From the IMG/VR virus record IMGVR_UViG_2770939586_000001: a stretch of DNA of 64,000 bases; one strand, 5' to 3'. Positions 22,375-61,915 of this stretch are shown one piece after another. A program made the position numbers and the translations under genes. This stretch comes from a virus (lineage: Duplodnaviria; Caudoviricetes). The notes beneath the pieces were generated by a model. The model was not told the DNA's origin and searched no databases. It saw only the letters and a program-made list of their open reading frames with translations. Position 1 is the first letter of the stretch. The number at the start of each line of letters is the position of its first letter.

Positions 22375-22412
22375 CTGAAATTCTGTGGAGATGTCCCGTA
22401 TAGAGTATACGA
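22375..22412 (+). promoter_or_regulatory. Phage promoter motif, copy 1
   Basis: CTGAAA-N16-CGTATAGAGTATACGA. Confidence 0.75.
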
Positions 22413-22454
22413 ACAGAAAATGAGGGGGAGGTGAAATAAAAAAATCAGTTTCCA

Positions 22455-22492
22455 CTAAAATTTATTCTTTGTGCAACGTATAGAGTATGTGA
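22455..22492 (+). promoter_or_regulatory. Phage promoter motif, copy 2
   Basis: CTAAAA-N16-CGTATAGAGTATGTGA, just before an RBS. Confidence 0.8.
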
Positions 22493-22512
22493 GCAAGCAA
22501 AAAGGAGATGAC

Positions 22513-22833
22513 ATGATGAGAAAAAAGATTTGGTACTGGATTATTCCGTCATATCGTCGATTACATGATGATCGCGAAATGATGCTTGCCCATCTTGAAG
22601 CGACTCACCACAACCTGCATTTGTACGAGCGACTGTATCAGGAGATGGCAGACGTGGTTGTAAAGCAAGATGAATGTATCCGGTTCCTGCGTGATGACCG
22701 GGACAAGTCGGGAGAGAAAGTAGATAAGTTGGCAAAGATGATCAATGAGGTGATCGAAGAAGATGGTGTAAGTGAAGTACAGGCAGCTACTGCGCAGGAG
22801 ATTACCGATGGAATCAGGCAGGTTGGAGTATGA
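22513..22833 (+). CDS. Coiled-coil hypothetical protein
   Basis: RBS AAAGGAG; first gene of the early operon. Confidence 0.6.
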   Translation: MMRKKIWYWIIPSYRRLHDDREMMLAHLEATHHNLHLYERLYQEMADVVVKQDECIRFLRDDRDKSGEKVDKLAKMINEVIEEDGVSEVQAATAQEITDGIRQVGV

Positions 22834-23285
22834 AAGCGTACCTGAATCGGCAAGAACGCGAGAACATTGTCACCATGCTGGTGTTCGAGCTGACGATGGA
22901 CAGCCTACTTCAAGCAAGTCCGCGAGTGCAGAAACTGTTTGGTAAGCATTGGTCTGATATGAAGCGGGCGCGGACGTATATTCACAAAGCGTTGAAGGAG
23001 GGGCTTGCCGAATCGCTTGACCAGAAGGAGATTTTACGCATTCACAAAATCGCGCAGAAATGTGACTTCATCGTGCGTGAACGTGCCGGGAAGCCGTTAC
23101 CGGATAAACGGGTGGTAGCGGTGCCGGATACGTTGATAGCGGATTTGGCTGAGTTGGCGATTGCTAACCATTGTCGGGACTGCAAGCGGTGTGATTGGCA
23201 GGAGTGTCGCGTGTTTACGGTGATGCAGGAAGCAGATATTCCGGCAGCACATATGGAGACGGGCGATTGTCCGTATCGGCAGTAA
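22830..23285 (+). CDS. DUF5651-like Cys-rich phage protein
   Basis: YLNRQERE start; CxxC...C...C...CPY end. Confidence 0.65.
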   Translation: MKAYLNRQERENIVTMLVFELTMDSLLQASPRVQKLFGKHWSDMKRARTYIHKALKEGLAESLDQKEILRIHKIAQKCDFIVRERAGKPLPDKRVVAVPDTLIADLAELAIANHCRDCKRCDWQECRVFTVMQEADIPAAHMETGDCPYRQ

Positions 23286-23308
23286 TCATGATGAATGGCG
23301 GTGGATGT

Positions 23309-23809
23309 GTGAGCCATGAATTTTACATTACGCCGGAGGAATACAAAAGAGCACAGCAGAATGGCATTGATGCTGCAAACCTAGAACGGCGTATTCATTT
23401 GTTGGGTTGGAAGAAGGAAAGGGCTATGAATACCCCTTTGAGAGAAAAGTTGGACCGGGGTGAGTGGGCGAAAATTGCAGAACAAAACGGCATCAAGTAC
23501 GACACGTTCATGAGCCGTGTGAACGTCTATGGATGGGATGAGGAACGAGCTGCTACCCAACCGTTACAGGATAGAAAAGCGGCGGCATTGAAAGGTACAG
23601 AAAAGAATCGAGTATATGATCCTGCACATGTAGAGTTGGCGGCTAAAAACGGAATTGCGTACCATACTTTTGTGCGCAGGATAAAGCGAGGATGGGATTC
23701 TGAGAGAGCGGCTACAGAACCAGTCATGACAGCGAGTACAGCAGGTAGAAAAGGTAAGGAGAAAACCATAGAGTTGTATGGTGACTGGAATAGATTTTCG
23801 TTTAAGTAA
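23309..23809 (+). CDS. Phage DNA-binding protein with three HTH-like repeats
   Basis: Three A..NGI...R(I/V)...GW..ERA units. Confidence 0.65.
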   Translation: MSHEFYITPEEYKRAQQNGIDAANLERRIHLLGWKKERAMNTPLREKLDRGEWAKIAEQNGIKYDTFMSRVNVYGWDEERAATQPLQDRKAAALKGTEKNRVYDPAHVELAAKNGIAYHTFVRRIKRGWDSERAATEPVMTASTAGRKGKEKTIELYGDWNRFSFK

Positions 23810-23823
23810 AGGAGATGTGATGC

Positions 23824-24414
23824 ATGACGAGTAAAGAAGAAGTTGCTGTTGCACTACGCTACATGCTGCCCACATTCGATGCAGAAAGCTATGTATTTGC
23901 CTGCATAGGGACGGACCGTTCGACAGGAGATAGTCTGGGGCCGTTAGTTGGCAGTAAGCTAGCGGCGGACGGATATGATGTGATTGGCACATTAGATAAG
24001 CCGCTACATGCGGTGAATTTAGAAGAACGATTAAGCCAAGTGCCAGCGGGGAAAACGGTGATTGCGATTGATGCCTGCTTAGGGAGTATGAGGAAGGTTG
24101 GTACAGTTAGCGTAACGGAGGGACCGCTCAAGCCAGGTGCCGGAGTTGGCAAGAAGCTAGTAGAAGTAGGAGATTACCATATCAAAGCGTTTGTAAATGT
24201 CGGAACACCTAACTACGCAGAAAATTATTTTAATTTAGCAAATACCAGATTGTCGATTGTATTTAAACTTGCAAGTGTCATCTGTGATGCCATTATGGAG
24301 GTGATTGCACCTGTGGTTTTCGAAGAAGTTGCGGCGAGTGAAGATACAGACAGATTTTCAGCTGGATTATCCGATCAGCAAGAGCAGAAGATTGTAGATG
24401 AATGTATCGGTTGA
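23824..24414 (+). CDS. yyaC: Spore protease YyaC (GPR-like)
   Basis: CIGTDRSTGDSLGPLVG, GTLDKPLHAVNL, IAIDACLG, PLKPGAGV, TRLSIV. Confidence 0.9.
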   Translation: MTSKEEVAVALRYMLPTFDAESYVFACIGTDRSTGDSLGPLVGSKLAADGYDVIGTLDKPLHAVNLEERLSQVPAGKTVIAIDACLGSMRKVGTVSVTEGPLKPGAGVGKKLVEVGDYHIKAFVNVGTPNYAENYFNLANTRLSIVFKLASVICDAIMEVIAPVVFEEVAASEDTDRFSAGLSDQQEQKIVDECIG

Positions 24415-24552
24415 GGTGGCGAGATATACGCAGGAGAAAGCGTATGGGACGTAAATGGAGATATGCTACATCAGCGCGATGAGTGTGCGGTGAGATACGT
24501 GAAAGGGATAGCGTGCGAGAAAATAGCTGAGTGATGTTGGGAGGATGAACAT

Positions 24553-24825: not shown

Positions 24826-24902
24826 AAAATGACCTGCCGAAGCAGGCCGCTCGAAAATCAGTCTATGCCAACATTGTAGCAGGGTTCTTGTTTCAGTAGC
24901 AA
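24823..24902 (-). ncRNA. Candidate ~45-nt antisense RNA unit (SigA-like promoter plus cUUCGg terminator)
   Basis: Minus strand: TTGCTA-N18-TACAAT with TGn extension, then GGCCTGC-TTCG-GCAGGTC and ATTTTTT. Confidence 0.45.
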
Positions 24903-24939
24903 ATAGCCTTGAAATTTGCATACACAGGAGATGATATGC

Positions 24940-28228: not shown

Positions 28229-28447
28229 ATGATTGTTAACCCTGCTGTGTTAAGTTTAGCCGCAGAAATGGTGCTTGATGAAGCGATTCGCAACTATCGA
28301 ATCGACACCCTGCATAAGAAAATCGATCATGCGCTTGAGCATGGCGATCGTCTGATGTTTGATGAAGCGACAAGTAAATTAAAGAGTTTAATTGATGAAA
28401 GTTCCGTACGTAGCGATTCGCACAAGTACTTTATGGAGATGAATTGA
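28229..28447 (+). CDS. IDEAL-domain protein
   Basis: AEMVLDEA...KIDHALEHGDRLMF. Confidence 0.75.
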   Translation: MIVNPAVLSLAAEMVLDEAIRNYRIDTLHKKIDHALEHGDRLMFDEATSKLKSLIDESSVRSDSHKYFMEMN

Positions 28448-34624: not shown

Positions 34625-34662
34625 CTGAAAAAATACAAGGATAGCCCGTATAGGGTATGTGA
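34625..34662 (+). promoter_or_regulatory. Phage promoter motif, copy 3
   Basis: CTGAAA-N16-CGTATAGGGTATGTGA. Confidence 0.8.
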
Positions 34663-34703
34663 GGGTAAAAACGATACAAACCTCAGAACAGGAGATGACA
34701 TGC

Positions 34704-35219
34704 ATGAGTGATGTGTATTTTGAAGAAGCACCGGAAGTACAGGAGATTTCTGGGCGCTTGATTGACCAGCACCATCCACATATGCAGGATGCAAAGGAAG
34801 TGATCGGCTACCGTTTTCGCTGCGGTCAGAGCGATTGGGCAGGTAAAGCAAAGAAATTGACGGCTTTTGAACGGTTTGAGACTGGTTTTATGCTCATGGT
34901 ATTCATAAACAAAGAAGCATGGACAGCACTAAGTGAAGCCCAGCAAGTTGCTTTAGTTGACCATGAACTTTGTCACTTCTCGCGTAAAAGTGAACGGATA
35001 TATGACAAGGAGAAAGAGGAGTGGGTAGACAAGTGGCTGCCGAAAGAAGATCCGTCTAACTGGGTGATTCGGGAACACGATGTGGAGGAATTCAGCGATA
35101 TAATTAAGCGGCATGGTCTCTGGGAGACGGGGATCGAGAAGTTTGCGTCTGTGGTTCGTAATGCTGAGCATCAAATGGATTTGGATGATATAGAACGAAA
35201 TTTACGTGTTATTAAATAA
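34704..35219 (+). CDS. Putative phage metallopeptidase
   Basis: ALVDHELCH and HDVEEF..II.RHG.W. Confidence 0.8.
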   Translation: MSDVYFEEAPEVQEISGRLIDQHHPHMQDAKEVIGYRFRCGQSDWAGKAKKLTAFERFETGFMLMVFINKEAWTALSEAQQVALVDHELCHFSRKSERIYDKEKEEWVDKWLPKEDPSNWVIREHDVEEFSDIIKRHGLWETGIEKFASVVRNAEHQMDLDDIERNLRVIK

Positions 35220-35344: not shown

Positions 35345-35788
35345 ATGAGTCAGTCGTTCTTACCGGAAATTGATAGAAAAGCCACGAAAAAAAGAGTGGA
35401 AGAAGTGTTGGAGACAGTACGTATCTATAGGCGAGTTGGATTTGTGCGCCGGGAAATAAATAATGTATCGAATTATGAGTCTCAGTTCAGCAGTAAAACC
35501 AATAAGATAGATAAACCTGTAGAAAATTGTGCGATCTGGAATGTGGAGCATGAAGGTAAAATTGTCGAGTTGTCTAACCGTATCGAGTTTGCTGTAAATA
35601 AATTACCACAAAGACAAAAAGAGATTATAGAAAAGCGATACCTGGGTGAAGAAAGCAATTTTGACTATCTGGTTGCTAATGAAGTTAGGCTGAGTGAGCG
35701 TACATACAGACGTGAGAAATCACGTGCGATTTATATATTAGCGTTAATGCTAAAGTTAGAGGTTCTAGAAAATGCAGGCGATAAATAG
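35345..35788 (+). CDS. ArpU-family late transcriptional activator
   Basis: FLPEIDRKATKKRVEEVLE; AVNKLP...IIEKRYL...SERTYRREKSRA. Confidence 0.88.
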   Translation: MSQSFLPEIDRKATKKRVEEVLETVRIYRRVGFVRREINNVSNYESQFSSKTNKIDKPVENCAIWNVEHEGKIVELSNRIEFAVNKLPQRQKEIIEKRYLGEESNFDYLVANEVRLSERTYRREKSRAIYILALMLKLEVLENAGDK

Positions 35789-40592: not shown

Positions 40593-40819
40593 TGGTGTTA
40601 AATGGGTGTTTTTTGGCTGAATATTGGTAGGCTGCTTGGATAGAGTGCTTGATGATAGTAGAAGAAGATGAGTAGTCCTTTTTGATTTTCAATAATATAA
40701 TCTTTATTAGTTTGTAGATTGAAAAAGTGACGATTTTCTACAAGTTTCAAGGAAAATAGTTCTTCTTGTCGAAGTTTAGCAGTAGATTAAGAAACACTTT
40801 TGATAGGGGGAATTATAAG

Positions 40820-41668
40820 TTGAAGGTTTTTTTAAGTTGGTCAGGAGAATTAAGTAGAAGGGTGGCTTTAGTCTTTAGAGAATGGTTACCTTCTGTTATA
40901 CAGGCTGTAGAACCTTATGTTTCCTCTGAAGATATTGATAAAGGAGCACGTTGGAGTAGTGATATTGCACAAGAACTAGAAGTTTCATCTTATGGTATTA
41001 TATGTATTACAAAGGAGAATATCGAGGCTCCTTGGATTAACTTTGAAGCCGGAGCTTTAGCTAAAACATTTGATAAAGCGTATGTTTCTCCTTTTTTATT
41101 TGGGATTAAAAGGTTTGAAGTATCAGGTCCTCTCTTGCAATTTCAATCTACTCTATATGAGAAAGACGATGTGAAGAAATTAATAGATGGTATTAACAAA
41201 GCTTGTGATTTACAAGGGCTAGACAGTTTGAGATTAGATAAGGTATTTGAAATGTGGTGGCCAGCTTTAAAGGAAGAATTAGACAACCTACTTGTCAATA
41301 GTGATGATTATTTAATTTCGGATGAGAAAGAAAATTCTGGCGAAATAAACAGTATGCTTGAGGAGGTTTTGGAGCTTACACGAAATCAGCAAAAGTTACT
41401 TCGTTCTCCTCATGATATATTGCCACCGGAGTATTTAGCCAAAGTTATAGGGGAGTTAAGCCCTTCTACAGTTCACCCTGGTGCTATTGCTGATTTAAGA
41501 AGAGGCTTAACGATAGGTGAAGCTTTGATTAAAAAATATGAGGAAACACGAGAAATGGATATTAACGAATTTCAACATATGCTTCGTATGTTGAGAAGAC
41601 CACTGGTTCATTTAACAAAACGAACAAAACATATCGAACAACGTATACAACTAGAGCTAGATATGTAA
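40820..41668 (+). CDS. TIR-domain protein (AT-rich moron)
   Basis: KVFLSWSG, DIDKGARW, PWINFEAGAL with the catalytic-position Glu; RBS supports TTG 40820. Confidence 0.85.
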   Translation: MKVFLSWSGELSRRVALVFREWLPSVIQAVEPYVSSEDIDKGARWSSDIAQELEVSSYGIICITKENIEAPWINFEAGALAKTFDKAYVSPFLFGIKRFEVSGPLLQFQSTLYEKDDVKKLIDGINKACDLQGLDSLRLDKVFEMWWPALKEELDNLLVNSDDYLISDEKENSGEINSMLEEVLELTRNQQKLLRSPHDILPPEYLAKVIGELSPSTVHPGAIADLRRGLTIGEALIKKYEETREMDINEFQHMLRMLRRPLVHLTKRTKHIEQRIQLELDM

Positions 41669-42841: not shown

Positions 42842-43069
42842 TTAGTTATCAGAATCGTCTTCTTCTAAAACTAACAACTCACTTAACGGAACATTGAAAA
42901 AGTCACATAGCGTGATGATTGTTTTATAGTCGATGCGATCATTTTTATCATTATAAAATCTAGTAAGAGTAGGGTTGCTTATTCCGGTTAAGCGCGAAAG
43001 TTCATTAATACTTTTAATTTTTCGCATCCCCATAAGTATATGCAATCTGCTCTTTATTTTTCTAGCCAC
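42842..43069 (-). CDS. Cro/CI-type HTH regulator (YozG/HTH_26-like)
   Basis: SINELSRLTGIS..TL...TIITLCDFFNV. Confidence 0.85.
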   Translation of the reverse strand: MARKIKSRLHILMGMRKIKSINELSRLTGISNPTLTRFYNDKNDRIDYKTIITLCDFFNVPLSELLVLEEDDSDN

Positions 43070-43122: not shown

Positions 43123-43178
43123 TAGTGTTAAAAATTTAACGTTAGTGTTAAATTTTATGAAGTTAGTATTGAAATTTT
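43123..43178. promoter_or_regulatory. Three operator-like direct repeats between divergent HTH genes
   Basis: TAGTGTTAAAAATTT (43123), TAGTGTTAAATTTT (43143), TAGTATTGAAATTTT (43164). Confidence 0.55.
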
Positions 43179-43243
43179 TAACTAAATAGTTATAATTGGA
43201 TTTATACAGAAAGTTACCAAGATATTCAAATGGGGGTGTAAAA

Positions 43244-43462
43244 ATGAACAAAGTGAAAAATAATCTTTCTGTATTGATGGGGAAACGTAAGATTCGTTCT
43301 ATTAATCAGCTAAGTAAAGAAACGGGCCTTCGTCATGAAGCGCTAAATAGATTGTACGCGGAAGATCAAGAGTACAACCCAAGTGTAAAAACGCTGATTA
43401 TTCTGTGTGATTTCTTCGAGTGTGACTTGCACGAATTGATAGAGTATACACCAGCGCAGTAG
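43244..43462 (+). CDS. Cro/CI-type HTH regulator, paralog of 42842-43069
   Basis: SINQLSKETGL...TLIILCDFFEC. Confidence 0.85.
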   Translation: MNKVKNNLSVLMGKRKIRSINQLSKETGLRHEALNRLYAEDQEYNPSVKTLIILCDFFECDLHELIEYTPAQ

Positions 43463-43819: not shown

Positions 43820-44359
43820 TTGGAGACGGACAAGCATTTAATCTATATATTTGCGGGTGGAGATGATGCAAGCGCCTATCAGAAGTTGAAGTCTGATGTG
43901 GCAGCGAAGGTGTACAGTTGTAGCACGCAAGTAAAAGGTGAGGAACTGGACGATATTATACAGGATGCAGCGTTGAAACTGTATTTATCCATTGATAGAT
44001 ATGACAGTAAAAAAGCGGCAGTATCAACGTTTCGTGATCACATTATCACAAATGTTTTGATTGACCGGATACGCCGCTGGCGGGCACATAAAAGCCAGGT
44101 GTTGACATGGGATGAAGTAGATGAAACAGAAGATGGATGTGAGCAAGTAGATTTTGATATGGATTTTGAGCGATGGTTTCGCACGTTGCTTCCACATGAG
44201 AAAAAGATTGTACGTATGCGATTGGATGGCAAGAAAAACTGTGTAATTGCAGATGAACTGGGATGTTCGAACGCTTCTATTACGGCATATAGGAAAGTGA
44301 TTCAGAAGAAGTGGAATAGCTTTTTCTATTATGGGGGAGATGAGAATCATGCAATATAA
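43820..44359 (+). CDS. ECF-like sigma-70 factor
   Basis: Region 2 DDIIQDAALKLY..IDRYD...ITNVLIDRIRR; region 4 LLPHEKKIV...IADELG; no region 3. Confidence 0.75.
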   Translation: METDKHLIYIFAGGDDASAYQKLKSDVAAKVYSCSTQVKGEELDDIIQDAALKLYLSIDRYDSKKAAVSTFRDHIITNVLIDRIRRWRAHKSQVLTWDEVDETEDGCEQVDFDMDFERWFRTLLPHEKKIVRMRLDGKKNCVIADELGCSNASITAYRKVIQKKWNSFFYYGGDENHAI

Positions 44360-45218
44360 CGAGCATTTGGGAGATGTAGAAACGTTTGTAGAGAAGAATC
44401 AAAAGTTGGTATGGAAATGTGTGCAGCAGTATAAGATGGTAGCTCGTACAAAGTGTATCGAGTTAGAAGAACTATTTCAGATCGGTATGATAGGAATGTT
44501 AAAAGCGTATGAGAAGTACGATCCAAGTAAATTTGAGAATGTGAACAACTTTACCACATATGGTGTTCCTATGATTCATGGAGAGATTTTACGTTTCTTA
44601 CGTGATTTCTATCCTGTTAGGGTTCCTCGTGGAAAAATGGAACTGCTTAGGAAAATACGATGCGCCGGTATGATGAATTTATCTGCTCAGGAGATTGCGG
44701 AACATTTCGATGTTTCGGAGAAGGAGGTAGAACAAGCGCTAGAGATGCGCTATGTAGAGCAGGTTCAATCTATGGATGCAGAGATTATAGATTATGAAAA
44801 TAAAGAGATTACGCTGCATGACAAAATTTCTGTATCGGCCGATTATACAGGTGTGTTCGTGTATGATTTTTTAAAATCGCTATCCGAGCGCGAGCAAACC
44901 ATCATAGAAATGCGGACATGGGATGCTACACAGGTGGAAATCGCACAGGCGGTAGGGATAGGTCAGGTTCAAGTATCACGTATGCTGACCAGAATAAAAA
45001 ATAAGTATCTCGCGTATTGTAACGGGGAAACGGTTAGTCCTGCGATTGAGCTGCAACGAAAAGTAACACGTGAGCGGTATGAGATAATGGCAGCCGAAGG
45101 GAGGAGTAACAAAGAAATCGCGCAGGAATTCGGATGCCATATTAAAACGCTGAAGCATCATCAAAGAAAGTGGAAGCAAGCGGAACAGGCGGTGGATCTG
45201 TATGAAGCCACTGTTTGA
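44349..45218 (+). CDS. SigF/SigG/SigB-like sigma factor with extra C-terminal HTH
   Basis: EELFQIGMIGMLKAYEKYDP, FTTYGVPMIHGEILRFLRD, LSEREQ...TQVEIAQAVGIGQVQVSR. Confidence 0.9.
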   Translation: MQYNEHLGDVETFVEKNQKLVWKCVQQYKMVARTKCIELEELFQIGMIGMLKAYEKYDPSKFENVNNFTTYGVPMIHGEILRFLRDFYPVRVPRGKMELLRKIRCAGMMNLSAQEIAEHFDVSEKEVEQALEMRYVEQVQSMDAEIIDYENKEITLHDKISVSADYTGVFVYDFLKSLSEREQTIIEMRTWDATQVEIAQAVGIGQVQVSRMLTRIKNKYLAYCNGETVSPAIELQRKVTRERYEIMAAEGRSNKEIAQEFGCHIKTLKHHQRKWKQAEQAVDLYEATV

Positions 45219-46016: not shown

Positions 46017-46054
46017 CTGAAAAAACGTGGAGATGGTTCGTATAGAGTATGTAG
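46017..46054 (+). promoter_or_regulatory. Phage promoter motif, copy 4
   Basis: CTGAAA-N16-CGTATAGAGTATGTAG. Confidence 0.8.
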
Positions 46055-46072: not shown

Positions 46073-48006
46073 GTGAAAATAGTTAAACTTTTGTTCGGAG
46101 AAAACGGATATGAGCGCATTTATAACGTGCTGGAGCGCACGGCGCGTGATGGAGATATGGTGTTGGTCAATGGGAAGGACTTGCATAAGGTTACAGCGAT
46201 GGATAGCAGCGGCAATATTTTGACAGAAGGATGCGCGGCGTTTGTGCCGGAGGATTACCAGGTTGTGGAGTTTAGTGGTCGGGGAGAATTGGATGATGTG
46301 AGGTACAGGGAGGAGCAATGGCAGGAGAACACACACGATTTAATCTTAGTAGTTAACCCGGAAGAACATGTTAGACTTGTGCCGGACTTAACCCGTCAGG
46401 AGGTCATCGAGAAGGCGAAGCAGGATATTGAGGAGTTGAAAAAAACAAGCCTAGTCCAGGGTTATTCATATTATCTGCACGATGGGAAAAGATGTGATGC
46501 AAAGTTTAGTAGAGAAAATAACAAAGTTGTGTGCGAGATGTTAGGCATAAATACGTATGCTAAATATGCTCAAGGAGAAGCAACGTTCGGTCCAACTGAC
46601 TGCTTCAACTGGCATATCGGTTGCGCCATCGCATTACGCCAAGCATCGGGACTGAGTGTACCACGCTACTATACACATGCGCCACAACCCACAGAGGTAC
46701 AGGTCGGTGATATTGTGACTCACAAGATCGACAACCGGGTATTTGAAGTAGAAAAAGTAGACGGGGAAAAGTGCTCTATCGTACATCATATCCCGTCCGT
46801 ATATCGTATTTAATTGTGCTGGATGATTCTCGTCTGGTGCAAGTAAAACAGCATGATGAATCTCCAGCAGATGTAGAAGAATGGATTTCAACCAATGAAA
46901 TGCTTCAACGAATCCAAGATGGTGAAGTATACATTTGCTCGAAACATGAGGAACGGAAGGAAACGGGCCGGAGTACAAAGGTTATGAAGAAAGGCTGCAA
47001 GATATTCTGGCAGGAATCGAATGTTCAATTTGTAAACGGCGGATCACTTGTGCGTCCACTCAAATGGAAGAAGATAAGCGAAGAAGTTCCGACTGATATG
47101 GACTGGATTTCTACACAAGAGATGTTTGCACAAAGTCAGGTAGGAGAGCGATATGAAGTCCAGTTTCCAGACACTCATCCAGCGCGAGACTGTTACAACG
47201 GTTGGGCAGAGCGATTGGAGAGTGATCAAATTGTATGGCAAGGTACGTCATCGTTGACACATCCGGTAAATCCGATAACGTGCAAGTGGAGAAAAGTGAA
47301 GGAGAGTGGAATAGAACTCACTACATCACAGTTGCTTGAGCAGTTACAAGAGGGGCAACGGGCACAAATGGTGAATGGACAGCCTCACTGGAATGTTTGT
47401 GATGTCTGGAAAGAAGAAAATGCTATCTGGTATTTAGATGGTGATGGAGAACGCGCGTTACTTCCGATGTCTGACGGGGTGATGGCTGCTAAGTGGAAGT
47501 TGATCGAGGTAAAGCAACCGGAGATCACAGAGCGCCAGCAGGCTATCAGTTTAGCTAAACAACTACTTGAAAATGAGTTAACCAATGCGAATCAGCGTTA
47601 TTTTGCGATAAATGGTAGTTTATGCGATGCCGAGTTCATTGTGAATCGTGACAAGCGTACTATCGCCTGCCTGATGCGTGGTATCAACACGAAGAAGGTT
47701 CATGCGCGAGGAATCGCCAAGTGTATGCCGTCTGATTGCTTCAACGTGCATATCGGCAAAGCGATAGCGTTGTGTCGTGCTATTGGTAATGATGTACCTG
47801 ATTACTTACTGAGTGCGCCCAATCCAACAGAACCGCAGGTAGGAGATGTGATAGAGTTTCACACGAGAAAAGGCATGCCATTCAAAAAAGACAAAGTTAT
47901 AGAAGTTACGGTCACATCAAGCGGGGTATTCTGTGAGGCTAGTAAAGGTACGATAAAGTTTATCCCTGGATATGGAGACCGTGTTGTAGATGATAGCCGT
48001 GAGTAA
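46073..48006 (+). CDS. Multi-repeat phage protein split by a -1 frameshift near 46763-46771 (ORFs 46073-46813 and 46771-48006)
   Basis: The DCFNxHIGxAIAL...APxPTExQVGD...DDSR domain occurs twice, and the first copy's DDSR end lies in the second frame; three ~70-aa repeats lie between the copies. Confidence 0.65.
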
Positions 48007-48536: not shown

Positions 48537-49382
48537 TTATTTAAAAAGCTTGTTGAAGTCCACTTCAAGCCCCGCCTGTGAGAGTTCACGAGCTAGTTCT
48601 ATTTCCCAGCTTCCCGCCATGGTTGTATATACGACTCCCTGAATATCAGACAGTATTTCAAGGTCTCCCTTTATTAAAGCGCAAACTTTGTTACGACCTA
48701 AGCGGCCCATAAAAAAGCCTAATTCAAAGATAACATTTTGCCTTGCACGACTTTTAGCTTCTTCAGGCTGTTCTTTTTTATAACCTATATCGTCAGGGGT
48801 TAAAAGCACTATTGCAAATGAGACATCTGAGTTAGCTTCAAACTTCTCAATAATAGTTCTCCCCTGATTAGCTTGTTCATGTAGGATAACAGGTTCAAAG
48901 TCTAATTTCTCTAGAAACCTAGTTACAGTCAGCTTTGTTTCGTTATCTTGTCCATGAACAATGAAGATTTTACGGTTACTGGTTACTGGATTTTGAGGAA
49001 TGTCACTTTCGTAATCGACCTGGATAGCTTCAGTATAAAGTTCTAGTCTATGTAAAATAGATTCTAATCTTTCAACTTTTTCGTTAGCATCTTTCCTGAA
49101 ATCTTTTACTTCATCCTGAAAAGTATAATCACCCATTATCATAAAAGGACCAACGTAGTTATATTCTTCTGCTATGGAATCGTCACTAAAAAGAGTGAGT
49201 AATAAATCATAATTATAATTGCTCCATTTTGTCTTTTCACTTTCTGCTTTTCGGAGGTCTTCTTGACCATATATAGAGAAATCTCCTAGTTGCTTACCTT
49301 TTTCAATTTGTTTAAGAATTTTATTAGCGGCCTCTTCTCTAGAAACATTGAGCGAGGGGAGTTTCCTGCTTTTCTTGGTCAT
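48537..49382 (-). CDS. CAP12/Pycsar-type TIR nucleotide-binding domain protein
   Basis: KIFIVHG, TIIEKFE, FAIVLLTPDD, RARQNVIFELGFFMGRLGR, SDIQGV. Confidence 0.88.
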   Translation of the reverse strand: MTKKSRKLPSLNVSREEAANKILKQIEKGKQLGDFSIYGQEDLRKAESEKTKWSNYNYDLLLTLFSDDSIAEEYNYVGPFMIMGDYTFQDEVKDFRKDANEKVERLESILHRLELYTEAIQVDYESDIPQNPVTSNRKIFIVHGQDNETKLTVTRFLEKLDFEPVILHEQANQGRTIIEKFEANSDVSFAIVLLTPDDIGYKKEQPEEAKSRARQNVIFELGFFMGRLGRNKVCALIKGDLEILSDIQGVVYTTMAGSWEIELARELSQAGLEVDFNKLFK

Positions 49383-49475: not shown

Positions 49476-49513
49476 CTAAAAAAATCGCTTCGACACTCGT
49501 ATAGAGTAGTTGA
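49476..49513 (+). promoter_or_regulatory. Phage promoter motif, copy 5
   Basis: CTAAAA-N16-CGTATAGAGTAGTTGA. Confidence 0.75.
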
Positions 49514-49538
49514 AGCGATTTTTTTGTGAGGTGATAAG

Positions 49539-49919
49539 GTGACGGTTAGAAAAAACGTGCTTAAGCTAGTCGAGAACAGCCCACATGTCAGCAAGAATAC
49601 AGCGCTGTTGGTCATGTGGTACTGGCGGTTGTTCGATGGCTGGGAAGCGAAAGATGATGTTGTGTTTACATCACCAGAGGAGATTTGCAGGGAGTTTCGA
49701 CAGCTAGAATCGGACGGTATTATTGATGCAGTAACAGGAGAGATTACGCCACTAGAGATCGGACAGGTTGTAAGGTTGGATACGTGGCGAGAAGAGTACG
49801 CCAAATACAAAGGCCAGAAAGCAGAAGTATGCGATGTGTTTGAAACGGAGCCACGATATCTTGTGAAAGTGGAGTCTTGTTCTCGGTTCTTTGTCTACTC
49901 AGGGGAGATTGAACGATGA
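49539..49919 (+). CDS. Hypothetical protein (SH3-like C-terminus)
   Basis: RBS GAGGTGA; IGQVVRL...GQKAEV...RYLVKV. Confidence 0.55.
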   Translation: MTVRKNVLKLVENSPHVSKNTALLVMWYWRLFDGWEAKDDVVFTSPEEICREFRQLESDGIIDAVTGEITPLEIGQVVRLDTWREEYAKYKGQKAEVCDVFETEPRYLVKVESCSRFFVYSGEIER

Positions 49920-51067: not shown

Positions 51068-51105
51068 CTGAAATTTTGTTTACCTACTCCGTATAGAGTA
51101 TGTGA
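51068..51105 (+). promoter_or_regulatory. Phage promoter motif, copy 6
   Basis: CTGAAA-N16-CGTATAGAGTATGTGA. Confidence 0.82.
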
Positions 51106-52008: not shown

Positions 52009-52091
52009 GAGTAGATCGTGATGGGTATGGAACCACGCATGACAATCCAGCAGAACGCGAAACAAAATAAAAATTGATGGGGGTAAATAAC

Positions 52092-52352
52092 ATGGAAATC
52101 TTAAAAGTTTCAGCAAAGTCGAATCCGAATTCTGTAGCAGGGGCATTGGCAGGTGTTCTTCGTGAACGTGGTTCTGCTGAGATGCAAGCAATCGGGGCAG
52201 GGGCATTGAACCAGGCAGTTAAAGCTGTCGCCATCGCACGTGGATTTGTAGCACCAAGTGGAGTAGATCTAATCTGCATCCCAGCTTTCGCGGATATTAT
52301 GATTGATGGGGAAGAACGGACGGCGATTAAGCTGATTGTTGAGCCACGGTAA
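52092..52352 (+). CDS. spoVS: Stage V sporulation protein S
   Basis: MEILKVSAKSNPNSVAGALAG...AIGAGALNQAVKAVAIARGF...PAF...GEERTAIKLIV. Confidence 0.95.
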   Translation: MEILKVSAKSNPNSVAGALAGVLRERGSAEMQAIGAGALNQAVKAVAIARGFVAPSGVDLICIPAFADIMIDGEERTAIKLIVEPR

Positions 52353-52431: not shown

Positions 52432-53796
52432 ATGACAAACGAGGAGATGATTGCAAGGGCTAGAGCAGGAGATGAGTCAATATTTGAGGAATTTTTCACT
52501 AAAAACGAGCCTTTCACTTATCACATTGCGCGAAAGTTTTCGAATACAGGGTTGGATGTTGAGGATTTAGCGTCAATAGCAAAGGTAGGAATGCTGAAGG
52601 CGTACCATTCATTTGATCTGGATAAAGCCATTAAGTTCGCTACTTATGCGGCACGGTGTATGTCGAATGAGATTCTGATGTTTCTACGGAAGAATAATAA
52701 GCATATAGGATTGGTGAGTCTGGATGCAGCGCTGAACATTGATTTTGATGGCAATGAATTGACACTGGCTGATGTACTGGAAGATACGTCTGCGCTAACA
52801 CCGGATTCCAGGGTTATGAGTGAAGCGTTAATGAAGGTGACGGAAGGGTTTCTTCAGACGTTGTCGGAGAGGGATCGAGGAATCTTCTTGTCATGCGTAG
52901 TTGAGGAGAAGAAACAGGATCATATCGCAAGTGAATTTGATATTTCGCAATCGTATATTTCGAGATTAGTTAAACGCTTGATTAAAAAGTTTCAAAAATA
53001 TGCACGTAGAGTAGGTTTTATTGACGGTCAGGAGAATATGACAGCGAAGCAAATTGAATTAGGAGATGAAGCACAGGAGGAGACTAACGTGAAAGCGTGG
53101 CAATGTGCGGAGTGCGGTTCTGACAATAAACCGGCTGGCGCGGGATCAAATACAACACTTTGCAGGTCATGTCGAAGCGAAAAAATGCGGCAAGGTAAAA
53201 AAGAATATGAAATCTCCTGTGTCGAATGTGGTGAAATATTTATAGCAAGGTCGAAGATAGCAAAGTATTGTACGCAGTGCAAGGAGAACAAGCAAAGTGG
53301 AAAAGTAGATGACACGCAAGCAAAACAAGTTCCAGTATACGTTCATTCAGATGTAGAAGGAGATGGTAAAGTGGAATATGTACAAGTACCAGCAAATGAA
53401 ACAGAAAGTGTGATCTATCCTCTGAGCAAGGTTGCGGAGCAGTTGAGAGTGTCTACAAGCGCATTACGTAAATGGTGCATGGGTTTGGAAAAGCAAGGAT
53501 ATGTATTCAAGGATAATTCTGGAGCTGGGCGTTTTATGAATAGCCAGGATATTTTCATGCTGCGGCAGATACAGAAGAAGATGGGAAAAGGTACATCTAT
53601 TGAAGAAGTGGTAACGGATGTGCTAGCTCGTTACGGTAAAAGAAAAGAGGACGGAGAGACGGCATTTCATCGCTTAATGCGTGGAGATACTCTATACTTG
53701 TCAGCGCAAGATGCACGTAAGATATGCGAAGCGCTGGATGTGCTGGGTGTTTGCTATGATCAGGAGAATGTGACAGCACTAAAAATGCTAGGTTAA
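52432..53796 (+). CDS. SigE/SigK-like sigma factor fused to two zinc ribbons and a MerR-like HTH
   Basis: KFATYAARCMSNEILMFLRK, DFDGNELTLADVL, ISQSYISR; four CxxC; VAEQLRVSTSALRKWC..LE..GY.F. Confidence 0.85.
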   Translation: MTNEEMIARARAGDESIFEEFFTKNEPFTYHIARKFSNTGLDVEDLASIAKVGMLKAYHSFDLDKAIKFATYAARCMSNEILMFLRKNNKHIGLVSLDAALNIDFDGNELTLADVLEDTSALTPDSRVMSEALMKVTEGFLQTLSERDRGIFLSCVVEEKKQDHIASEFDISQSYISRLVKRLIKKFQKYARRVGFIDGQENMTAKQIELGDEAQEETNVKAWQCAECGSDNKPAGAGSNTTLCRSCRSEKMRQGKKEYEISCVECGEIFIARSKIAKYCTQCKENKQSGKVDDTQAKQVPVYVHSDVEGDGKVEYVQVPANETESVIYPLSKVAEQLRVSTSALRKWCMGLEKQGYVFKDNSGAGRFMNSQDIFMLRQIQKKMGKGTSIEEVVTDVLARYGKRKEDGETAFHRLMRGDTLYLSAQDARKICEALDVLGVCYDQENVTALKMLG

Positions 53797-53828
53797 AACC
53801 AAGCCGGGGCCATGCCTCGGTTTTTTGT

Positions 53829-54187: not shown

Positions 54188-54901
54188 ATGAATAAGGAGA
54201 TTTTTGAACGGTGTAAAGTAGATAAATTATATTTAGAACAATTTATGCGGGAGAACGAGAATCTAATCTGGTTCTCGATCCGCAAATATATTGGGGAGCC
54301 AGCAGAAGTAGCAGACAAGTATCGAATTGATAAAGATGATTTGCTGCAGCTTGGGAGGCTGGCGATGTTGAAGTGTATCAAGCGATTTGACCCGGACCGA
54401 AGAGTGAAGTTCAGCTCATTCACGGTAACGGCCATCGTTAGAGAAGTACGATGTTTCCTGCGTGACAAAACTAGTGTGATTCGACCAACACGTTCGGCCA
54501 GTGAGCTGTTGAATCGGATTAAGCAGACGATATGCGAGTTGGAATATGTACCATCTACACGCGATATTGCGGAACTGCTGGACGTAGATGAGCAGCGGGT
54601 TGTAAAAGCCATGAAAGTAGCAGGAGATACCGTATATGCTGAATTTGATATGCCGATACCGAAACGAGCAGAAGATGATGTGATAGACAGTATGTATACG
54701 CAGGAAATATTGCAGGATATGGCGTGTCGTATGACGGATGTAGAGTTTAACATTGTGCTCGGGAGACTGAATGGTATGTCTTATAGGCAGCTATCTGAGA
54801 AGTGTAAAGTATCGAAGAAAGCAGTAGTTCGAACGATGAGGAAGGCTAGGGAGGTGCTACGAGATGTGTATACTCTAATGAATGAGTTGGACAAGGATTG
54901 A
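54188..54901 (+). CDS. SigF/SigG-like sigma factor
   Basis: DDLLQLGRLAMLKCIKRFDP...KFSSF...IVREVRCFLRD; region 3 PSTRDIAELL; region 4 HTH. Confidence 0.85.
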   Translation: MNKEIFERCKVDKLYLEQFMRENENLIWFSIRKYIGEPAEVADKYRIDKDDLLQLGRLAMLKCIKRFDPDRRVKFSSFTVTAIVREVRCFLRDKTSVIRPTRSASELLNRIKQTICELEYVPSTRDIAELLDVDEQRVVKAMKVAGDTVYAEFDMPIPKRAEDDVIDSMYTQEILQDMACRMTDVEFNIVLGRLNGMSYRQLSEKCKVSKKAVVRTMRKAREVLRDVYTLMNELDKD

Positions 54902-56825: not shown

Positions 56826-56910
56826 GGTTTACATTTATATTAATTAAAAAAATCTTGAAATCTAATATCTTTAGGTTATAATTAATCCAAGGTTTACCAT
56901 ATGGAGGTGG

Positions 56911-58032
56911 ATGAAGATGTCTTTAAAAGTTTTAGAAACGTTGGGATTTATTAAAAAGAATATTCTAACCACAAGTGAAGTTGCCGAATTATTAGGTGTA
57001 ACTAGGCAAAGGATCAACGCTATAGTTAAGACTAAAGATTTAGTCCCTTTCAAAAAGACAGGGGAAACCAGTTTATTTTTACTTGATGACGTAATCAATT
57101 ATAAAGAAAACAAGAGATCAGGCCCTCGAACTTCTATCGCTAGCATGGCTCCGGAGCTGTTTGATCGTTCCGGATCTACATATGACAGCATTGATTTTTT
57201 CAGAGAGAATCGACATAAGCTTGGCCAAATTGTTCACGCATATGCTTTCTTTAATCCTATCGATGCAGCAATTCATAACTTCTATGTTCCCTCACAACAT
57301 TTTAAGAGAGGTGTATTTTTAAATATAGAAACACCTCACCTAGTTTTGGTAGATACAGAGGGGAATGAAATGTGGATTAGCGGATGCAACTGCGGTTACG
57401 GAGGTACCGGTCCTCACGGTAGTCAAACGGTATTACAAGAATGTGGTTTTCCACAAAAAGAAATTGATAACATTTTCAGATATAGGGTTGTGAAGCTGTT
57501 CAAAGACCCTGATGGAAATGTAGATGTTCATGTTGCTAATAGCGATTACGATGGAGGTACATTTGACGAAGGCACAACGTCAATTTATTTCCGTAATGAT
57601 AATTTGGTTCTAATGCACAAACCTAGTCGGTGGAGCAAAGAAAAAAATGAAATTAAAACAGCCGAAAGATACCAATCATTTATTCCGAATCCTGTTCGAT
57701 TCGAAATTTATCCCACTTATGAACAAGCGAAAGAAATGGGATATGTTCTACCTGGGTTGGACGGAAGCGATTTCAGTAGAGAAGAGGTTTATCGCGTAAT
57801 TATTAAAGATTCGTCAGGAAGAGAGCTATGGTTAAATCCACACATTCATACACAAACACCGATCTTAGCTCAAGCTGATTTACGTTCTCTTCTAGAACTT
57901 TGCGGTTTTGATGTACCGGAAGAAAGTGCAAATAAAGGTTGGTTATCATCTTGGTTAAGTACAAATATACGGAGATTTCAACCGAATCCCGTAATCATTT
58001 CAAAGAGAAAAGAAGTTAAAATTAAGATTTAA
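56911..58032 (+). CDS. Excisionase-type HTH fused to an unrecognised domain
   Basis: LTTSEVAELLGVTRQRI; CNCGYGGTGPHG motif. Confidence 0.65.
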   Translation: MKMSLKVLETLGFIKKNILTTSEVAELLGVTRQRINAIVKTKDLVPFKKTGETSLFLLDDVINYKENKRSGPRTSIASMAPELFDRSGSTYDSIDFFRENRHKLGQIVHAYAFFNPIDAAIHNFYVPSQHFKRGVFLNIETPHLVLVDTEGNEMWISGCNCGYGGTGPHGSQTVLQECGFPQKEIDNIFRYRVVKLFKDPDGNVDVHVANSDYDGGTFDEGTTSIYFRNDNLVLMHKPSRWSKEKNEIKTAERYQSFIPNPVRFEIYPTYEQAKEMGYVLPGLDGSDFSREEVYRVIIKDSSGRELWLNPHIHTQTPILAQADLRSLLELCGFDVPEESANKGWLSSWLSTNIRRFQPNPVIISKRKEVKIKI

Positions 58033-58050
58033 AACTAAAAGAAACTTTTC

Positions 58051-58123: not shown

Positions 58124-58333
58124 ATGTCACAGCAACAAAATAGAAATCGTAATAACAATGAACTGGTTGCTCCACAAGCACTGGATATGATGAAGTATGA
58201 AATAGCTTCTGAATTCGGTGTACAACTCGGACCGGATACAACTTCTCGCCAGAACGGTTCTGTCGGAGGCGAAATTACAAAGCGCCTGGTTCAGATAGCA
58301 GAGCAACAATTAAGTGGTAAATACGTGCAATAA
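58124..58333 (+). CDS. Alpha/beta-type small acid-soluble spore protein
   Basis: [30 protein letters not shown]. Confidence 0.95.
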
Positions 58334-58652: not shown

Positions 58653-58664
58653 AGAGTAGGTAGT

Positions 58665-59902: not shown

Positions 59903-60061
59903 TCGTTACACCCCCCTCAACCTTTCGCTTTATCGCCGAATGGTAACTATCTACTCTTTTGATCGACTTTCAATTCTGTGTAGATAGTTAAGCGTGGTGG
60001 TAATCCCATATCCTCACGAACTACTTGACGCTGAAACTCGATTTGCGCGGCATCTCCCGAT

Positions 60062-60286
60062 CTAGTTTTGCGCATTCGTATTCATATTCTTCTCCGGGAT
60101 GATGGTGGAAACAACGTGTTTGTAGATAAGCACCTGCTGCTTGTTTTCTTTCTCAAACAGGATGCAGAAAGTATCAAACGAAACGATGCGGCCTTTCATC
60201 GGTACACCGTTTGTCAGAAAAATTGTGACCGTTATTTTCTCTTTACGAGCGTTGTTCAGGAATGTGTCCTGTAATTTATTTTCCAT
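60062..60286 (-). CDS. hfq: RNA chaperone Hfq
   Basis: LQDTFLN..RKEKI.VTIFLTNGV..KG.I.SFD.F...LIYKH.VSTI.P. Confidence 0.92.
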   Translation of the reverse strand: MENKLQDTFLNNARKEKITVTIFLTNGVPMKGRIVSFDTFCILFEKENKQQVLIYKHVVSTIIPEKNMNTNAQN

Positions 60287-60305
60287 ACATATCATCTCCT
60301 CATGG

Positions 60306-60632
60306 TCATTTCAGCCGGCCACTCAATTCCTCGAACCATTCCCGGTCATTTGTAGCTAGTGCCAGATCAACCAGTTGTAGAAGCCAGTCGCGCTTTCTCC
60401 TGCGCAACTCTGCTTCCGTGATCGGTTTCAGAACGGTGAGTCTATCGGTTTCTACCTTTACACTTCCTTTATGCAGCGGACGAAGATTTACTTGGGCGGC
60501 GTTCTTTCCGCATTTTTCAACTACGCCGACGTACTCTTCTCCTTTGTACTTCCACGTCACAACATCTCCCTTTTGAATCGGGCGCTTCTGCAAAAGATAG
60601 CATGTCCCGTTCAATTCCATGTACTGTTTCAA
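60306..60632 (-). CDS. SH3-like plus IDEAL-domain protein
   Basis: KGDVV...GVVEK; LVDLALATNDREWFEEL. Confidence 0.7.
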   Translation of the reverse strand: MKQYMELNGTCYLLQKRPIQKGDVVTWKYKGEEYVGVVEKCGKNAAQVNLRPLHKGSVKVETDRLTVLKPITEAELRRRKRDWLLQLVDLALATNDREWFEELSGRLK

Positions 60633-60655
60633 CGTTTCACCTCCTCACTTTCTGT

Positions 60656-60693
60656 TCACATACTCTATACGGAGTAGGTAGGTGGAATTTCAG
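60656..60693 (-). promoter_or_regulatory. Phage promoter motif, copy 7
   Basis: CTGAAA-N16-CGTATAGAGTATGTGA on the minus strand. Confidence 0.82.
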
Positions 60694-60747
60694 CCGAAAC
60701 AAAAGAAAATATAAAAATTCAAATCCCTGATCTAATTTTCGATTCGA

Positions 60748-60785
60748 CTAAAATTTCATCTTCATGCTGCGTATGGAGTAGGTAG
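60748..60785 (+). promoter_or_regulatory. Phage promoter motif, copy 8
   Basis: CTAAAA-N16-CGTATGGAGTAGGTAG. Confidence 0.72.
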
Positions 60786-60822
60786 GAGGAAAAATAGTCC
60801 TTCGAGAAAGGAGATGATATGC

Positions 60823-61602
60823 ATGGACAAGTTGCAGATTATCAATCGTGATGGTCAATTGTTGGTAGATAGTCGGGAAGTGGCGGAGATGGTTGGAAAG
60901 GAACATGGTCACTTATTGCGTGATATTAAAAATTACATGGAAGTATTAGGTAAATCCAATTTTGGATTGGCTGATTTTTTCATCGAGGATACGTACACTG
61001 ACGGTCAAGGAAAGCCAAGGCCGTGTTATCTTATCACCCGCAAAGGCTGCGACATGGTAGCGAACAAGATGACGGGGGAGAAGGGGGTTCTTTTCACGGC
61101 GGCCTATGTTACTCGGTTTGAGGAGATGGAGAAAAAGTTATACCAAGTACACGTACCCCAAACGCTACCAGAAGCGTTACGCGCATATGCTGATGAAGTG
61201 GAGCGGCGTGAACTGGCAGAGAATAAGCTCGCCATCGCTGAACCGAAAGCGGAGAAGCACGACAAATTTATCAATGCTAGCAGCTTGCAGGGAATCAAGG
61301 AAGTTGGCAAGGTACTGGGCATTGGACAAAAGAAGTTCTTCGAGTTTCTGCGCCAGGTTAAGATTCTGGATGGAAAGAACTTGCCGATGCAGGATTATCT
61401 GAACCGTGGATGGTTCGAGGTAAAGGAAGCAACTATTGGACATGGAGAAGATGATGCAGCGTTTAATGTGGTAGTTACAAAAGTAACACCGATCGGATTA
61501 TCAGCGCTGAGTGACGTAGTGGAGAAATACGGCGGCGCTGATACGCTGAATGATCTGAAAGTAAAAGAAGTAGCTGGATACGTGAGAGCAAAGCAAATGT
61601 AG
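60823..61602 (+). CDS. Rha-family/KilAC antirepressor
   Basis: VDSREVAEMVGKEH..LLRDI, TGEKGVLFTAAYV..FEEME, PQTLPEALR, PKA...TKVTP.G. Confidence 0.9.
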   Translation: MDKLQIINRDGQLLVDSREVAEMVGKEHGHLLRDIKNYMEVLGKSNFGLADFFIEDTYTDGQGKPRPCYLITRKGCDMVANKMTGEKGVLFTAAYVTRFEEMEKKLYQVHVPQTLPEALRAYADEVERRELAENKLAIAEPKAEKHDKFINASSLQGIKEVGKVLGIGQKKFFEFLRQVKILDGKNLPMQDYLNRGWFEVKEATIGHGEDDAAFNVVVTKVTPIGLSALSDVVEKYGGADTLNDLKVKEVAGYVRAKQM

Positions 61603-61877
61603 AAGTAAACGGCAGGAGACAAGCCGGAGGAGATGGATAACTCAGACTGGACGTTTAGTTCGGTCTTTTTTTGTTTCATCAAAACAAAGGAATAAATTGG
61701 ACCGATACGAAAAAATACGATTACCTTATAATGTACGGTGTATCCATGTAACAAGAGAAAATGAGATTGTTTTAAATAAAAATAGAATCGTTTTACGATC
61801 CTGTACAAATATAACCAATAGATATACATGCAGTACATACATGATTTTCAAATCATGCCAAAAAGTTGTGATGTTCT

Positions 61878-61915
61878 TTAAAAAAATCGTGATATGCCTC
61901 GTATAGAGTATGTGA
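61878..61915 (+). promoter_or_regulatory. Phage promoter motif, copy 9
   Basis: TTAAAA-N16-CGTATAGAGTATGTGA. Confidence 0.75.

Follow-up and report, generated by a model that had tools for sequence, protein, structure and literature searches.

A 64,000-nucleotide stretch of DNA from a virus of the Caudoviricetes (Duplodnaviria; IMG/VR record IMGVR_UViG_2770939586_000001), here called the window, carries a repeated bipartite motif, YTRAAA-N16-CGTATRGRGTA, and raises the question of what reads it. The window belongs to a prophage integrated in a bacterial genome, and the copies of the motif stand ahead of replication, regulatory and integration genes. On balance, we favour the reading that the ten copies in the complete prophage are phage-specific middle promoters recognized by a phage sigma factor, most probably the orphan extracytoplasmic function (ECF)-like sigma encoded at 43820-44359, hereafter sigma-1. 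That transcription starts at the copies, and which sigma reads them, we infer from the sequence.

A sharply bounded motif private to the phage

The preliminary description of this DNA had listed nine copies, each with exactly 16 nucleotides (nt) between its blocks, each intergenic and oriented toward the downstream gene, and none in the tail region. The strict pattern, 33 bases long, matched the window at precisely those nine places (9/9), and 100 dinucleotide-preserving shuffles of the window gave no match at all (mean 0.00, maximum 0). The count was right for the window but one short of the full set, which comprises ten copies, one of them outside the window. All ten are intergenic and point at the next gene, and pattern and matrix scans found no copy in the head-tail region. 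The copies are:

22375-22407, plus strand: copy 1, upstream member of a tandem pair, divergent from an Xer-like recombinase gene and ahead of the replication operon, 105 nt from the start codon
22455-22487, plus strand: copy 2, heading a 12-kb replication/recombination operon, 25 nt from the start codon
34625-34657, plus strand: copy 3, heading genes for a metallopeptidase (34659-35219) and ArpU (35345-35788)
46017-46049, plus strand: copy 4, heading two paralogous genes without assigned function (46073-46813 and 46771-48006)
49476-49508, plus strand: copy 5, heading a gene without assigned function (49539-49919)
51068-51100, plus strand: copy 6, heading genes for a nucleotidyltransferase (NTase)-like protein (51112), SpoVS (52074) and a SigE/K-like sigma (52432-53796)
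60661-60693, minus strand: copy 7, heading a leftward operon for an IDEAL protein, Hfq and a C5 DNA methylase
60748-60780, plus strand: copy 8, back to back with copy 7 and heading a Rha/ANT antirepressor gene (60814-61602)
61878-61910, plus strand: copy 9, heading a small open reading frame (ORF) and a large serine recombinase gene (62158-63711), beside the right prophage end
G000:2250729-2250761, minus strand: the tenth copy, in this prophage but outside the window, about 38 kb to its left

Between the end of the downstream block and a start codon preceded by a ribosome-binding site there are 20-56 nt, copy 1 apart, and these start codons carry a good Shine-Dalgarno sequence. The units that had been assigned to the copies (replication operon, peptidase-ArpU, NTase-SpoVS-sigma, IDEAL-Hfq-methylase, antirepressor and recombinase) were confirmed by Pfam, the operon behind copy 2 encoding an SMC-like ATPase, Sak, SSB, DnaD-like and G39P-like proteins, DnaB, a primase and RecU. 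Copy 4 does head the gene at 46073, described earlier as a repeat protein, but this gene has no Pfam match and its assignment comes from PHROG family matches. Terminator-like hairpins at 53801 and 61644 end the units that start from the copies at 51068 and 60748, respectively. At copy 5 only, a 14-bp inverted repeat (AAAAAAATCGCTTC ... GAAGCGATTTTTTT) at 49477-49524 brackets the downstream block and could form a hairpin in the transcript or in DNA. The C5 DNA methylase gene downstream of the tenth copy appears to be split into two overlapping ORFs (L010:18730-19961, minus strand, outside the window), which may represent a frameshift.

Taken by itself, the 11-bp downstream block has nine perfect matches in the window; when one or two mismatches are tolerated the count is 55 against 37.5 expected, barely over chance, so the motif class is sharply bounded. 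Over the whole genome (4,116,770 bp) the strict pattern matched ten times, every match inside the refined prophage bounds and none in the remaining ~4.0 Mb of the host genome, and the pattern read backwards, as a control, matched nowhere. A 44-position weight matrix scored the ten sites at 42.9-55.1 bits and everything else in the genome, on both strands, at <18 bits, a gap that is overstated because the matrix was trained on these same sites. As an independent check, the relaxed core TRAAA-N16-CGTAT was counted: 11 matches fell inside the provisional prophage bounds (one of them, G000:2352777, beyond the refined right end) and 29 outside. At the other spacings from N13 to N20 there were 21-52 matches outside the prophage, and since the 29 at N16 fall within this range, the relaxed core is not enriched in the host.

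Further afield, none of the 10 other genomes of the family contained the motif. In a species-representative collection (185,579 species) the strict pattern gave 33 single matches in unrelated taxa or contigs, and four viral contigs (L050, L052, L053 and L055) held one exact match each; none of these shows similarity to the prophage, and all were treated as chance. The scan of public collections returned one IMG/VR provirus with several matches, G011. Degenerate copies were sought by relaxed regular expressions and matrix scans, with none of note; the sequence CGTATAAATTA at 58050, ahead of a small acid-soluble protein (SASP) gene, lacks a proper upstream block. The motif is private to the phage, and the privacy claimed for it earlier survives comparison with the host chromosome.

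Aligning the ten prophage sites with the five of G011 (15 in total) gave a common layout: a variable A/T-rich stretch, a loose TTTCG-like lead-in, CT(G/A)AAA, a 16-nt spacer, CGTATAGAGTA and a weaker TGTGA. The spacer after CTRAAA is exactly 16 nt in 15/15 sites (equivalent to 15 nt after the hexamer TRAAAN) and free in sequence apart from one conserved T; among the ten sites of this genome it begins with a T-tract at five and with an A-tract at five. Within the -10 block, CGTATAGAGTA, CGTAT and the final GTA are invariant in all 15 sites. The T-rich AATTTT(T)C-like element that had been noticed upstream of several copies is clear at five of them, 14-18 nt upstream of the -35 block (22375, 34625, 46017, 60693 and 60748), partial at 49476 (ATTTT at -16) and displaced at 51068, where the tract lies at -29.

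Promoter class and conservation in a relative

G011 is an IMG/VR provirus record of 98,984 bp, syntenic with the prophage and 66-84% identical in nucleotide sequence over 44 kb of alignments, which ends at the equivalent of window position 47.9 kb. Three of its five motif copies (at 68991, 84371 and 94136) occupy gaps orthologous to those of the copies at 22455, 34625 and 46017. Counted manually, the spacers of these pairs are identical at 3/16, 12/16 and 8/16 positions, respectively, with both blocks and the spacer length kept. Blocks that are kept around a spacer that drifts at fixed length form the footprint expected of a promoter with two separated contacts. The homologues encoded by G011 are 67% (sigma-1), 49% (sigma-2, the neighbouring sigma gene), 77% (Xer-like recombinase) and 82% (peptidase) identical to those of the window. 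A tblastn search found no counterpart of the CI-like or Cro-like genes in G011, which carries a different HTH_3 pair.

By sequence, the copies are not sigma-A promoters. A scan for the sigma-70-type consensus (TTGACA-N16-18-TATAAT, at least 9 of 12 matches, with A2 and T6 of the -10 invariant) called none of the nine sites in the window, which was the scope of that scan, and the best sigma-A register of the sites, CTGAAA-N18-TATAGA, lacks the final T. Nor do the copies appear to be host SigW promoters, being one base tighter and having a -35 without the final C. The host does encode a SigW orthologue (259.6 bits, cut-off 243.1) whose own gene is preceded by TGAAAC-N16-CGTA, and this element is enriched in the host genome, with 20 sites compared with 2-8 at N12-N15, 14 at N17 and 7 at N18-19; inside the prophage there is none. 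Upstream of the 19 host sigma genes the full motif is absent, with one weak TAAAA-N16-CGTA at -290, and the host ECF genes show AAC-type sites. The likeness to SigW promoters first pointed out for the motif, one base tighter and with a long -10 extension, was thus found again in this host, together with the missing C.

The copies do resemble ECF promoters in general. In PMC5758882, the B. subtilis SigW elements are given as TGAAAC and CGTA with a -35-proximal T-tract (tGAAACnTTTt), ECF spacers as 14-17 bp, and CGT at the upstream edge of the -10 as an ECF trait. The -10 block of the motif begins with CGT at 15/15 sites, its fixed spacer falls within 14-17 bp and a homopolymer tract lies by the -35.

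Candidate readers of the copies

Four sigma genes lie in the right part of the prophage. These genes, the switch that precedes them and the recombinase gene beside the tandem copies are:

43820-44359, plus strand: sigma-1, an orphan ECF-like sigma with Sigma70_r2 and a GerE-type helix-turn-helix (HTH) by Pfam; longest ORF from 43775
44331-45218, plus strand: sigma-2, SigF/G-like with an extra C-terminal HTH, overlapping the end of sigma-1
52432-53796, plus strand: sigma-3, SigE/K-like with a C-terminal extension of ~260 aa, downstream of copy 6
54188-54901, plus strand: sigma-4, SigF/B-like by Pfam and TIGR-type model scans
42842-43069, minus strand: CI-like HTH_26 repressor gene, divergent from PR
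43169-43196, plus strand: PR, a sigma-A-type promoter (TTGAAA-N16-TATAAT, 11/12) between the divergent CI-like and Cro-like genes
43196-43462, plus strand: Cro-like HTH_26 gene, first of the PR operon, probable ATG at 43245
21432-22301, minus strand: XerC/D-like tyrosine recombinase gene, transcribed away from the tandem copies; XerC model score 267 bits, with the R-K-H-R-H-Y residues all aligning with XerD (1a0p)

Pfam places Sigma70_r2 at residues 36-101 of sigma-1, a GerE-type HTH at 140-180 and r3 nowhere; with the region 2 and region 4 domains alone and a length of 179-194 aa, the protein is built like ECF (group 4) factors, which measure about 170-200 aa. Its G011 homologue also matches Sigma70_ECF and r4_2. 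The only model whose cut-off it passed was the general sigma-70/ECF model TIGR02937 (54.6 bits against 42.9). It is not assignable to a described ECF subgroup, its best equivalog scores (46, 41 and 35 bits) falling short of the respective cut-offs (264, 190 and 209), and it scores far under the cut-off of every SigW or SigM model. Compared with solved structures, SigW was the sole match and a weak one (E 1.5e-4). Two habits of ECF genes are missing: the gene is preceded by the sigma-A-type PR and has no autoregulatory motif copy upstream, and no cotranscribed anti-sigma factor was found, the neighbouring small ORF having no Pfam match, although an undetected one is possible.

Sigma-1 has very few relatives. 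A word-indexed search of 5.8 billion clusters gave 3 at E<=1e-5, and among 1.84 billion representatives there were 2 proteins at E<=1e-10 and 1 cluster at E<=1e-30. The 50,697 phage records searched held no match, plasmids gave 4 at ~28% identity, and in 18 genomes of the order the only matches were host ECFs, 29-32% identical. Among viral contigs, single-protein scans turned up no relative and an alignment-based scan just G011 and one 26%-identical stray, and a metagenome scan found one contig, L067, which is the same phage as G011 (99.9% identity). At the nucleotide level, a phage search gave no match. A further homologue, P0002, 79% identical, is encoded on a 107-kb contig. The three distinct homologues are 66-76% identical overall, and their region 2 and region 4 helices do not vary, just as the motif does not. 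The privacy of the motif is shared by sigma-1.

What singles out sigma-1 as the best candidate reader is the operon logic in the two phages. In the window, PR heads the cro-like gene, a small ORF, sigma-1, sigma-2 and a methylase-like gene. In G011 the cro-like gene is preceded by a sigma-A-type promoter (TTGAAA-N17-TAAAAT), no ORF separates cro from sigma-1, and beyond the stop codon of sigma-1 come a terminator-like hairpin (-16 kcal/mol, z -3.64) and then a motif copy heading three further sigma genes. Since a sigma-A-type promoter precedes it in both phages, and since hairpin and motif copy set the other G011 sigmas apart, sigma-1 is the sole sigma that would be made from a host-type promoter in both and is never behind a motif copy. 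At the G011 locus (L064:10477-13342), a series of four consecutive sigma genes follows cro: sigma-1, a SigE/K-like gene, sigma-2 and another sigma.

Several points weigh against this assignment. The -35 lacks AAC, all 15 sites having RAAA followed by A or T, and the conserved -10 block spans 11-16 bp, well beyond the known requirement of an ECF sigma, so that a second factor might bind at this place as well. The sigma-1 structural model reached a mean predicted local distance difference test (pLDDT) score of 54.5 from a 4-row alignment and gives no fold-level support. The comparison uses one independent relative only, L067 being G011 again. In both phages the Xer-like recombinase co-occurs with the motif, and sigma-2, encoded with sigma-1 in the window and keeping its recognition helix in G011, fits the co-occurrence nearly as well. 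The proposal of a dedicated sigma encoded at 43820-44359, as first made, therefore holds in that sigma-1 is the best candidate, but with sigma-2 as a competing reader.

If sigma-1 reads the copies, the following sequence of events may be suggested. In the lysogen, the CI-like repressor would shut the single sigma-A-type promoter PR. Upon infection or induction, PR would make Cro and sigma-1, and host core RNA polymerase, which would use the copies only when carrying a phage-encoded sigma, would as sigma-1 holoenzyme fire the ten promoters through the A/T tract, CTRAAA at -35, the 16-nt spacer and CGTATAGAGTA at -10, with a predicted start ~6-8 nt after CGTA. Under the control of these promoters would be the genes for replication and recombination, the antirepressor, the serine recombinase, the methylases, Hfq, ArpU and additional sigmas of sporulation type; the late genes would be served in turn by ArpU and these sigmas. 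A phage RNA polymerase was also sought, but none of the ORFs compared with Pfam and PHROGs belonged to such a family, several large ones having no match of any kind. A cascade leading to ArpU and the sporulation-like sigmas had been proposed from the start: the genes are in place, ArpU and two sporulation-type sigma genes lying downstream of copies, and the cascade itself we infer.

A broader proposal, advanced tentatively because it may well prove wrong, is that the phage is kept silent by promoter orthogonality and not by many operators. PR would be the sole repressed promoter, and the early/middle programme (replication, antirepressor, integrase, methylases, Hfq, ArpU and three sporulation-type sigmas) would be readable only by sigma-1, with the antirepressor self-locking the switch; sigma and promoters would form an orthogonal pair at the head of a four-sigma cascade.

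The copies might instead be promoters of another phage sigma, mainly sigma-2 from the PR transcript and secondarily sigma-3, which we judge unlikely. Translation of sigma-2 is coupled to that of sigma-1 in the window, G011 encodes sigma-2 as well, and SigD/FliA-type promoters, CTAAA-N16-CCGATAT, have the same spacing as the motif. Yet between two phages with identical motifs sigma-2 is 49% and sigma-1 67% identical, and it is sigma-1 whose DNA-reading helices are invariant. Relatives of sigma-2 occur in 212 phage records; the three phages with its nearest homologues, which lack sigma-1, contain no relaxed motif match, weak evidence given homologues only 32-35% identical. As for sigma-3, the SigE/K family -10, CATA-N3-TA, resembles TATAGAGTA, and in G011 a motif copy directly precedes a sigma-3-like gene, which would fit autoregulation. 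But the sigma-2 and sigma-3-like genes of G011 both lie behind the terminator-like hairpin and a motif copy, and would need another factor to start, and sigma-3 of the window has no other predicted promoter. The CGT at the upstream edge of the -10, an ECF trait according to PMC5758882, also speaks against either.

A slim chance is left to the view that the copies are read by a host alternative sigma, SigW or another ECF, which would tie the phage programme to a host stress signal. There is a precedent in S. aureus, where conserved int promoters of prophages are reported to be a target of an alternative sigma of the host (PMC2869324), and the motif is of a SigW-like type in a host that has both a SigW orthologue and enriched TGAAAC-N16-CGTA. 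However, 0/10 copies have TGAAAC and their spacing is one base shorter; conversely, no copy of the phage motif exists anywhere in the host, whose promoters have no counterpart to the long invariant -10 block, and 0/19 host sigma genes have the full motif upstream, the host ECF genes having AAC-type sites.

Slimmer still is the prospect that the blocks are operators of a phage repressor laid over weak host promoters, with the Xer-like recombinase as the binder, in the manner of the SPBRE sites of MrpR. This would account for the position of the recombinase gene, divergent from the tandem copies and 77% identical in the motif-keeping G011, for a -10 block longer than a sigma needs, and for the near-palindrome CGTATAGAGTATACG in one copy. 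Conservation is asymmetric, however, with an invariant left arm and a right arm degenerate in 14/15 sites; the exact 16-nt distance between blocks around a free spacer is promoter behaviour; and no usable sigma-A -10 lies beneath the blocks. The Xer-like protein, moreover, is a good XerC/D match that keeps all catalytic residues, whereas MrpR has lost recombinase function according to PMC10516654; an MrpR-like role for it is rejected because of these intact residues. Operators of the CI/Cro type are likewise rejected, as the sharing of the motif by two heteroimmune phages argues against an immunity operator.

That the copies are non-transcription signals, such as a mobile miniature repeat or recombination or packaging-related sites, is very improbable: the restriction of a short, strongly conserved repeat to a single mobile element with recombinases encoded nearby might suggest it, but there are no terminal inverted repeats or target duplications, the copies are always gene-oriented at promoter-like distance with a spacer free in sequence and fixed in length, and they recur at orthologous gaps in a relative of 70-80% identity and nowhere else in the genome.

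Gene layout and likeness to known systems

By Pfam and PHROG scans the prophage is a large siphovirus-type element of ~112.2 kb. Compared with congeneric genomes, left-flank homology stops near G000:2,240,101 and right-flank homology starts near 2,352,306 (window ~63,731), and the flanks are contiguous in the congeners G001 and G004. Terminase, portal, head and tail genes, including one for a 2908-aa tape measure, extend up to window ~19,600 and are followed by the Xer-like gene, the 12-kb replication/recombination operon, the metallopeptidase, ArpU and the CI/Cro-type switch. The right part holds the four sigma genes, SpoVS, SASP, Hfq, methylases and the antirepressor, with the large serine recombinase gene at the right end. 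This gene abuts the right junction, and the prophage interrupts the 5' part of a small host gene, intact in congener G004 as a 104-aa ORF (L073:251-565) with a weak IDEAL match (E 0.0045), an arrangement that recalls gene-splitting elements such as SPbeta in spsM.

Some features of the element stand apart from the motif. In the prophage the heptamer AGTAGAT reaches 4.9x the density that it has elsewhere in the genome (55 vs 402), and tandem pairs of it closely precede the ribosome sites of several genes, the portal gene and sigma-4 among them (window -22648/-22615, -37026, -33880, 54153/54183); it may be a late promoter or activator site, although the signal is unclean, many copies being intragenic. 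The start context AGGAGATGAT(ATG), independent of the motif, occurs 15 times and is the most repeated 10-mer of the prophage (for example at window 5814, 11963, 19325, 24926, 52442 and 60809). A second near-consensus sigma-A-type promoter at 56855-56882 (TTGAAA-N16-TATAAT, 11/12) heads the gene of a 373-aa protein with an excisionase-type HTH (56911-58032), a candidate directionality factor or regulator whose expression would not depend on the motif class. Two TIR-domain genes, at 40766-41668 and 48537-49382 (minus strand), one TIR_2 and one a CAP12/Pycsar-effector TIR (E 3.4e-42), have the look of defence morons expressed in the lysogen; a separate sigma-A-like promoter, TTTACA-N17-TATGAT, serves the second from 49443 on the minus strand. 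Sporulation-related look-alikes form a dense set alongside the SigE/K-like and SigF/G-like sigmas: SpoVS (52074-52352), an alpha/beta SASP (58124-58333), Hfq (60062-60295) and IDEAL proteins (28229-28447 and 60306-60632). The C-terminal extension of sigma-3 has weak PHROG matches to HNH-endonuclease and unassigned families, and may be a fusion or insertion.

Phage sigmas with their own promoter class include gp28 of SPO1, an early product that turns on the middle genes, and gp36 of phiEco32. As in those phages, an early sigma would here redirect host core polymerase to conserved, phage-only promoters ahead of replication and regulatory genes. Unlike them, this phage is temperate and integrated, with the sigma directly behind cro in a repressor-controlled operon, a regulon that would include the antirepressor and integrase, a sigma without relatives in 50,697 phage records and a new consensus. 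In PBSX the Xre-Xpf circuit, and in temperate Firmicute phages the late activators ArpU/RinA, serve the late operons for packaging and lysis. The likeness to these is that a repressor-controlled, sigma-like factor would unlock a downstream class of operons, with an ArpU gene in the cascade; the difference is that no copy precedes structural genes here, the class covering replication, regulation and integration genes. The literature searched, supplements excepted, held nothing on point about an ECF-like sigma running early or middle genes of a temperate phage, which is not proof of absence.

With the B. subtilis SigW promoters as set out in PMC5758882 the motif shares the CGTA that opens the -10, the richness of the -35 in A, the homopolymer tract where the spacer begins and a spacer length in the ECF range, but its -35 ends in A or T and not in C, its -10 conservation is 7-12 bp longer and there is no autoregulatory copy before the sigma gene. 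In SPbeta, PMC10516654 describes ten SPBRE-containing promoter regions bound by MrpR, a protein of tyrosine-recombinase fold. Here too about ten copies of an element lie in promoter regions, of early functions among others, in a large Bacillus-type prophage with a large serine recombinase; SPBRE, however, is a 15-bp repressor site whose binder lacks catalysis, whereas the motif is bipartite with a fixed-length, free spacer, the recombinase appears catalytically intact and the copies are read as activating. Finally, sporulation-like sigmas of Bacillus phages are discussed in PMC9429907 as acting on host sporulation genes. The present phage resembles those in encoding SigF/G-like and SigE/K-like sigmas, SpoVS and an alpha/beta SASP, and differs in that its motif is not found in the host and is better assigned to the ECF-like sigma than to these.

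If sigma-1 does read the ten copies, the large temperate phage of a spore former would possess a compact, sigma-gated lysis-lysogeny circuit, and a sigma lineage almost without relatives in public data would gain a function and a promoter consensus. The pair would also be a ready-made orthogonal sigma/promoter system for Bacillus-type hosts, and would give a handle on when the phage-borne sporulation-like sigmas, SpoVS, SASP and Hfq are expressed. Sigma cascades being familiar from phages, the overall view of how phages control transcription would stay unchanged; what would be new is this sigma lineage with its consensus in a temperate phage.

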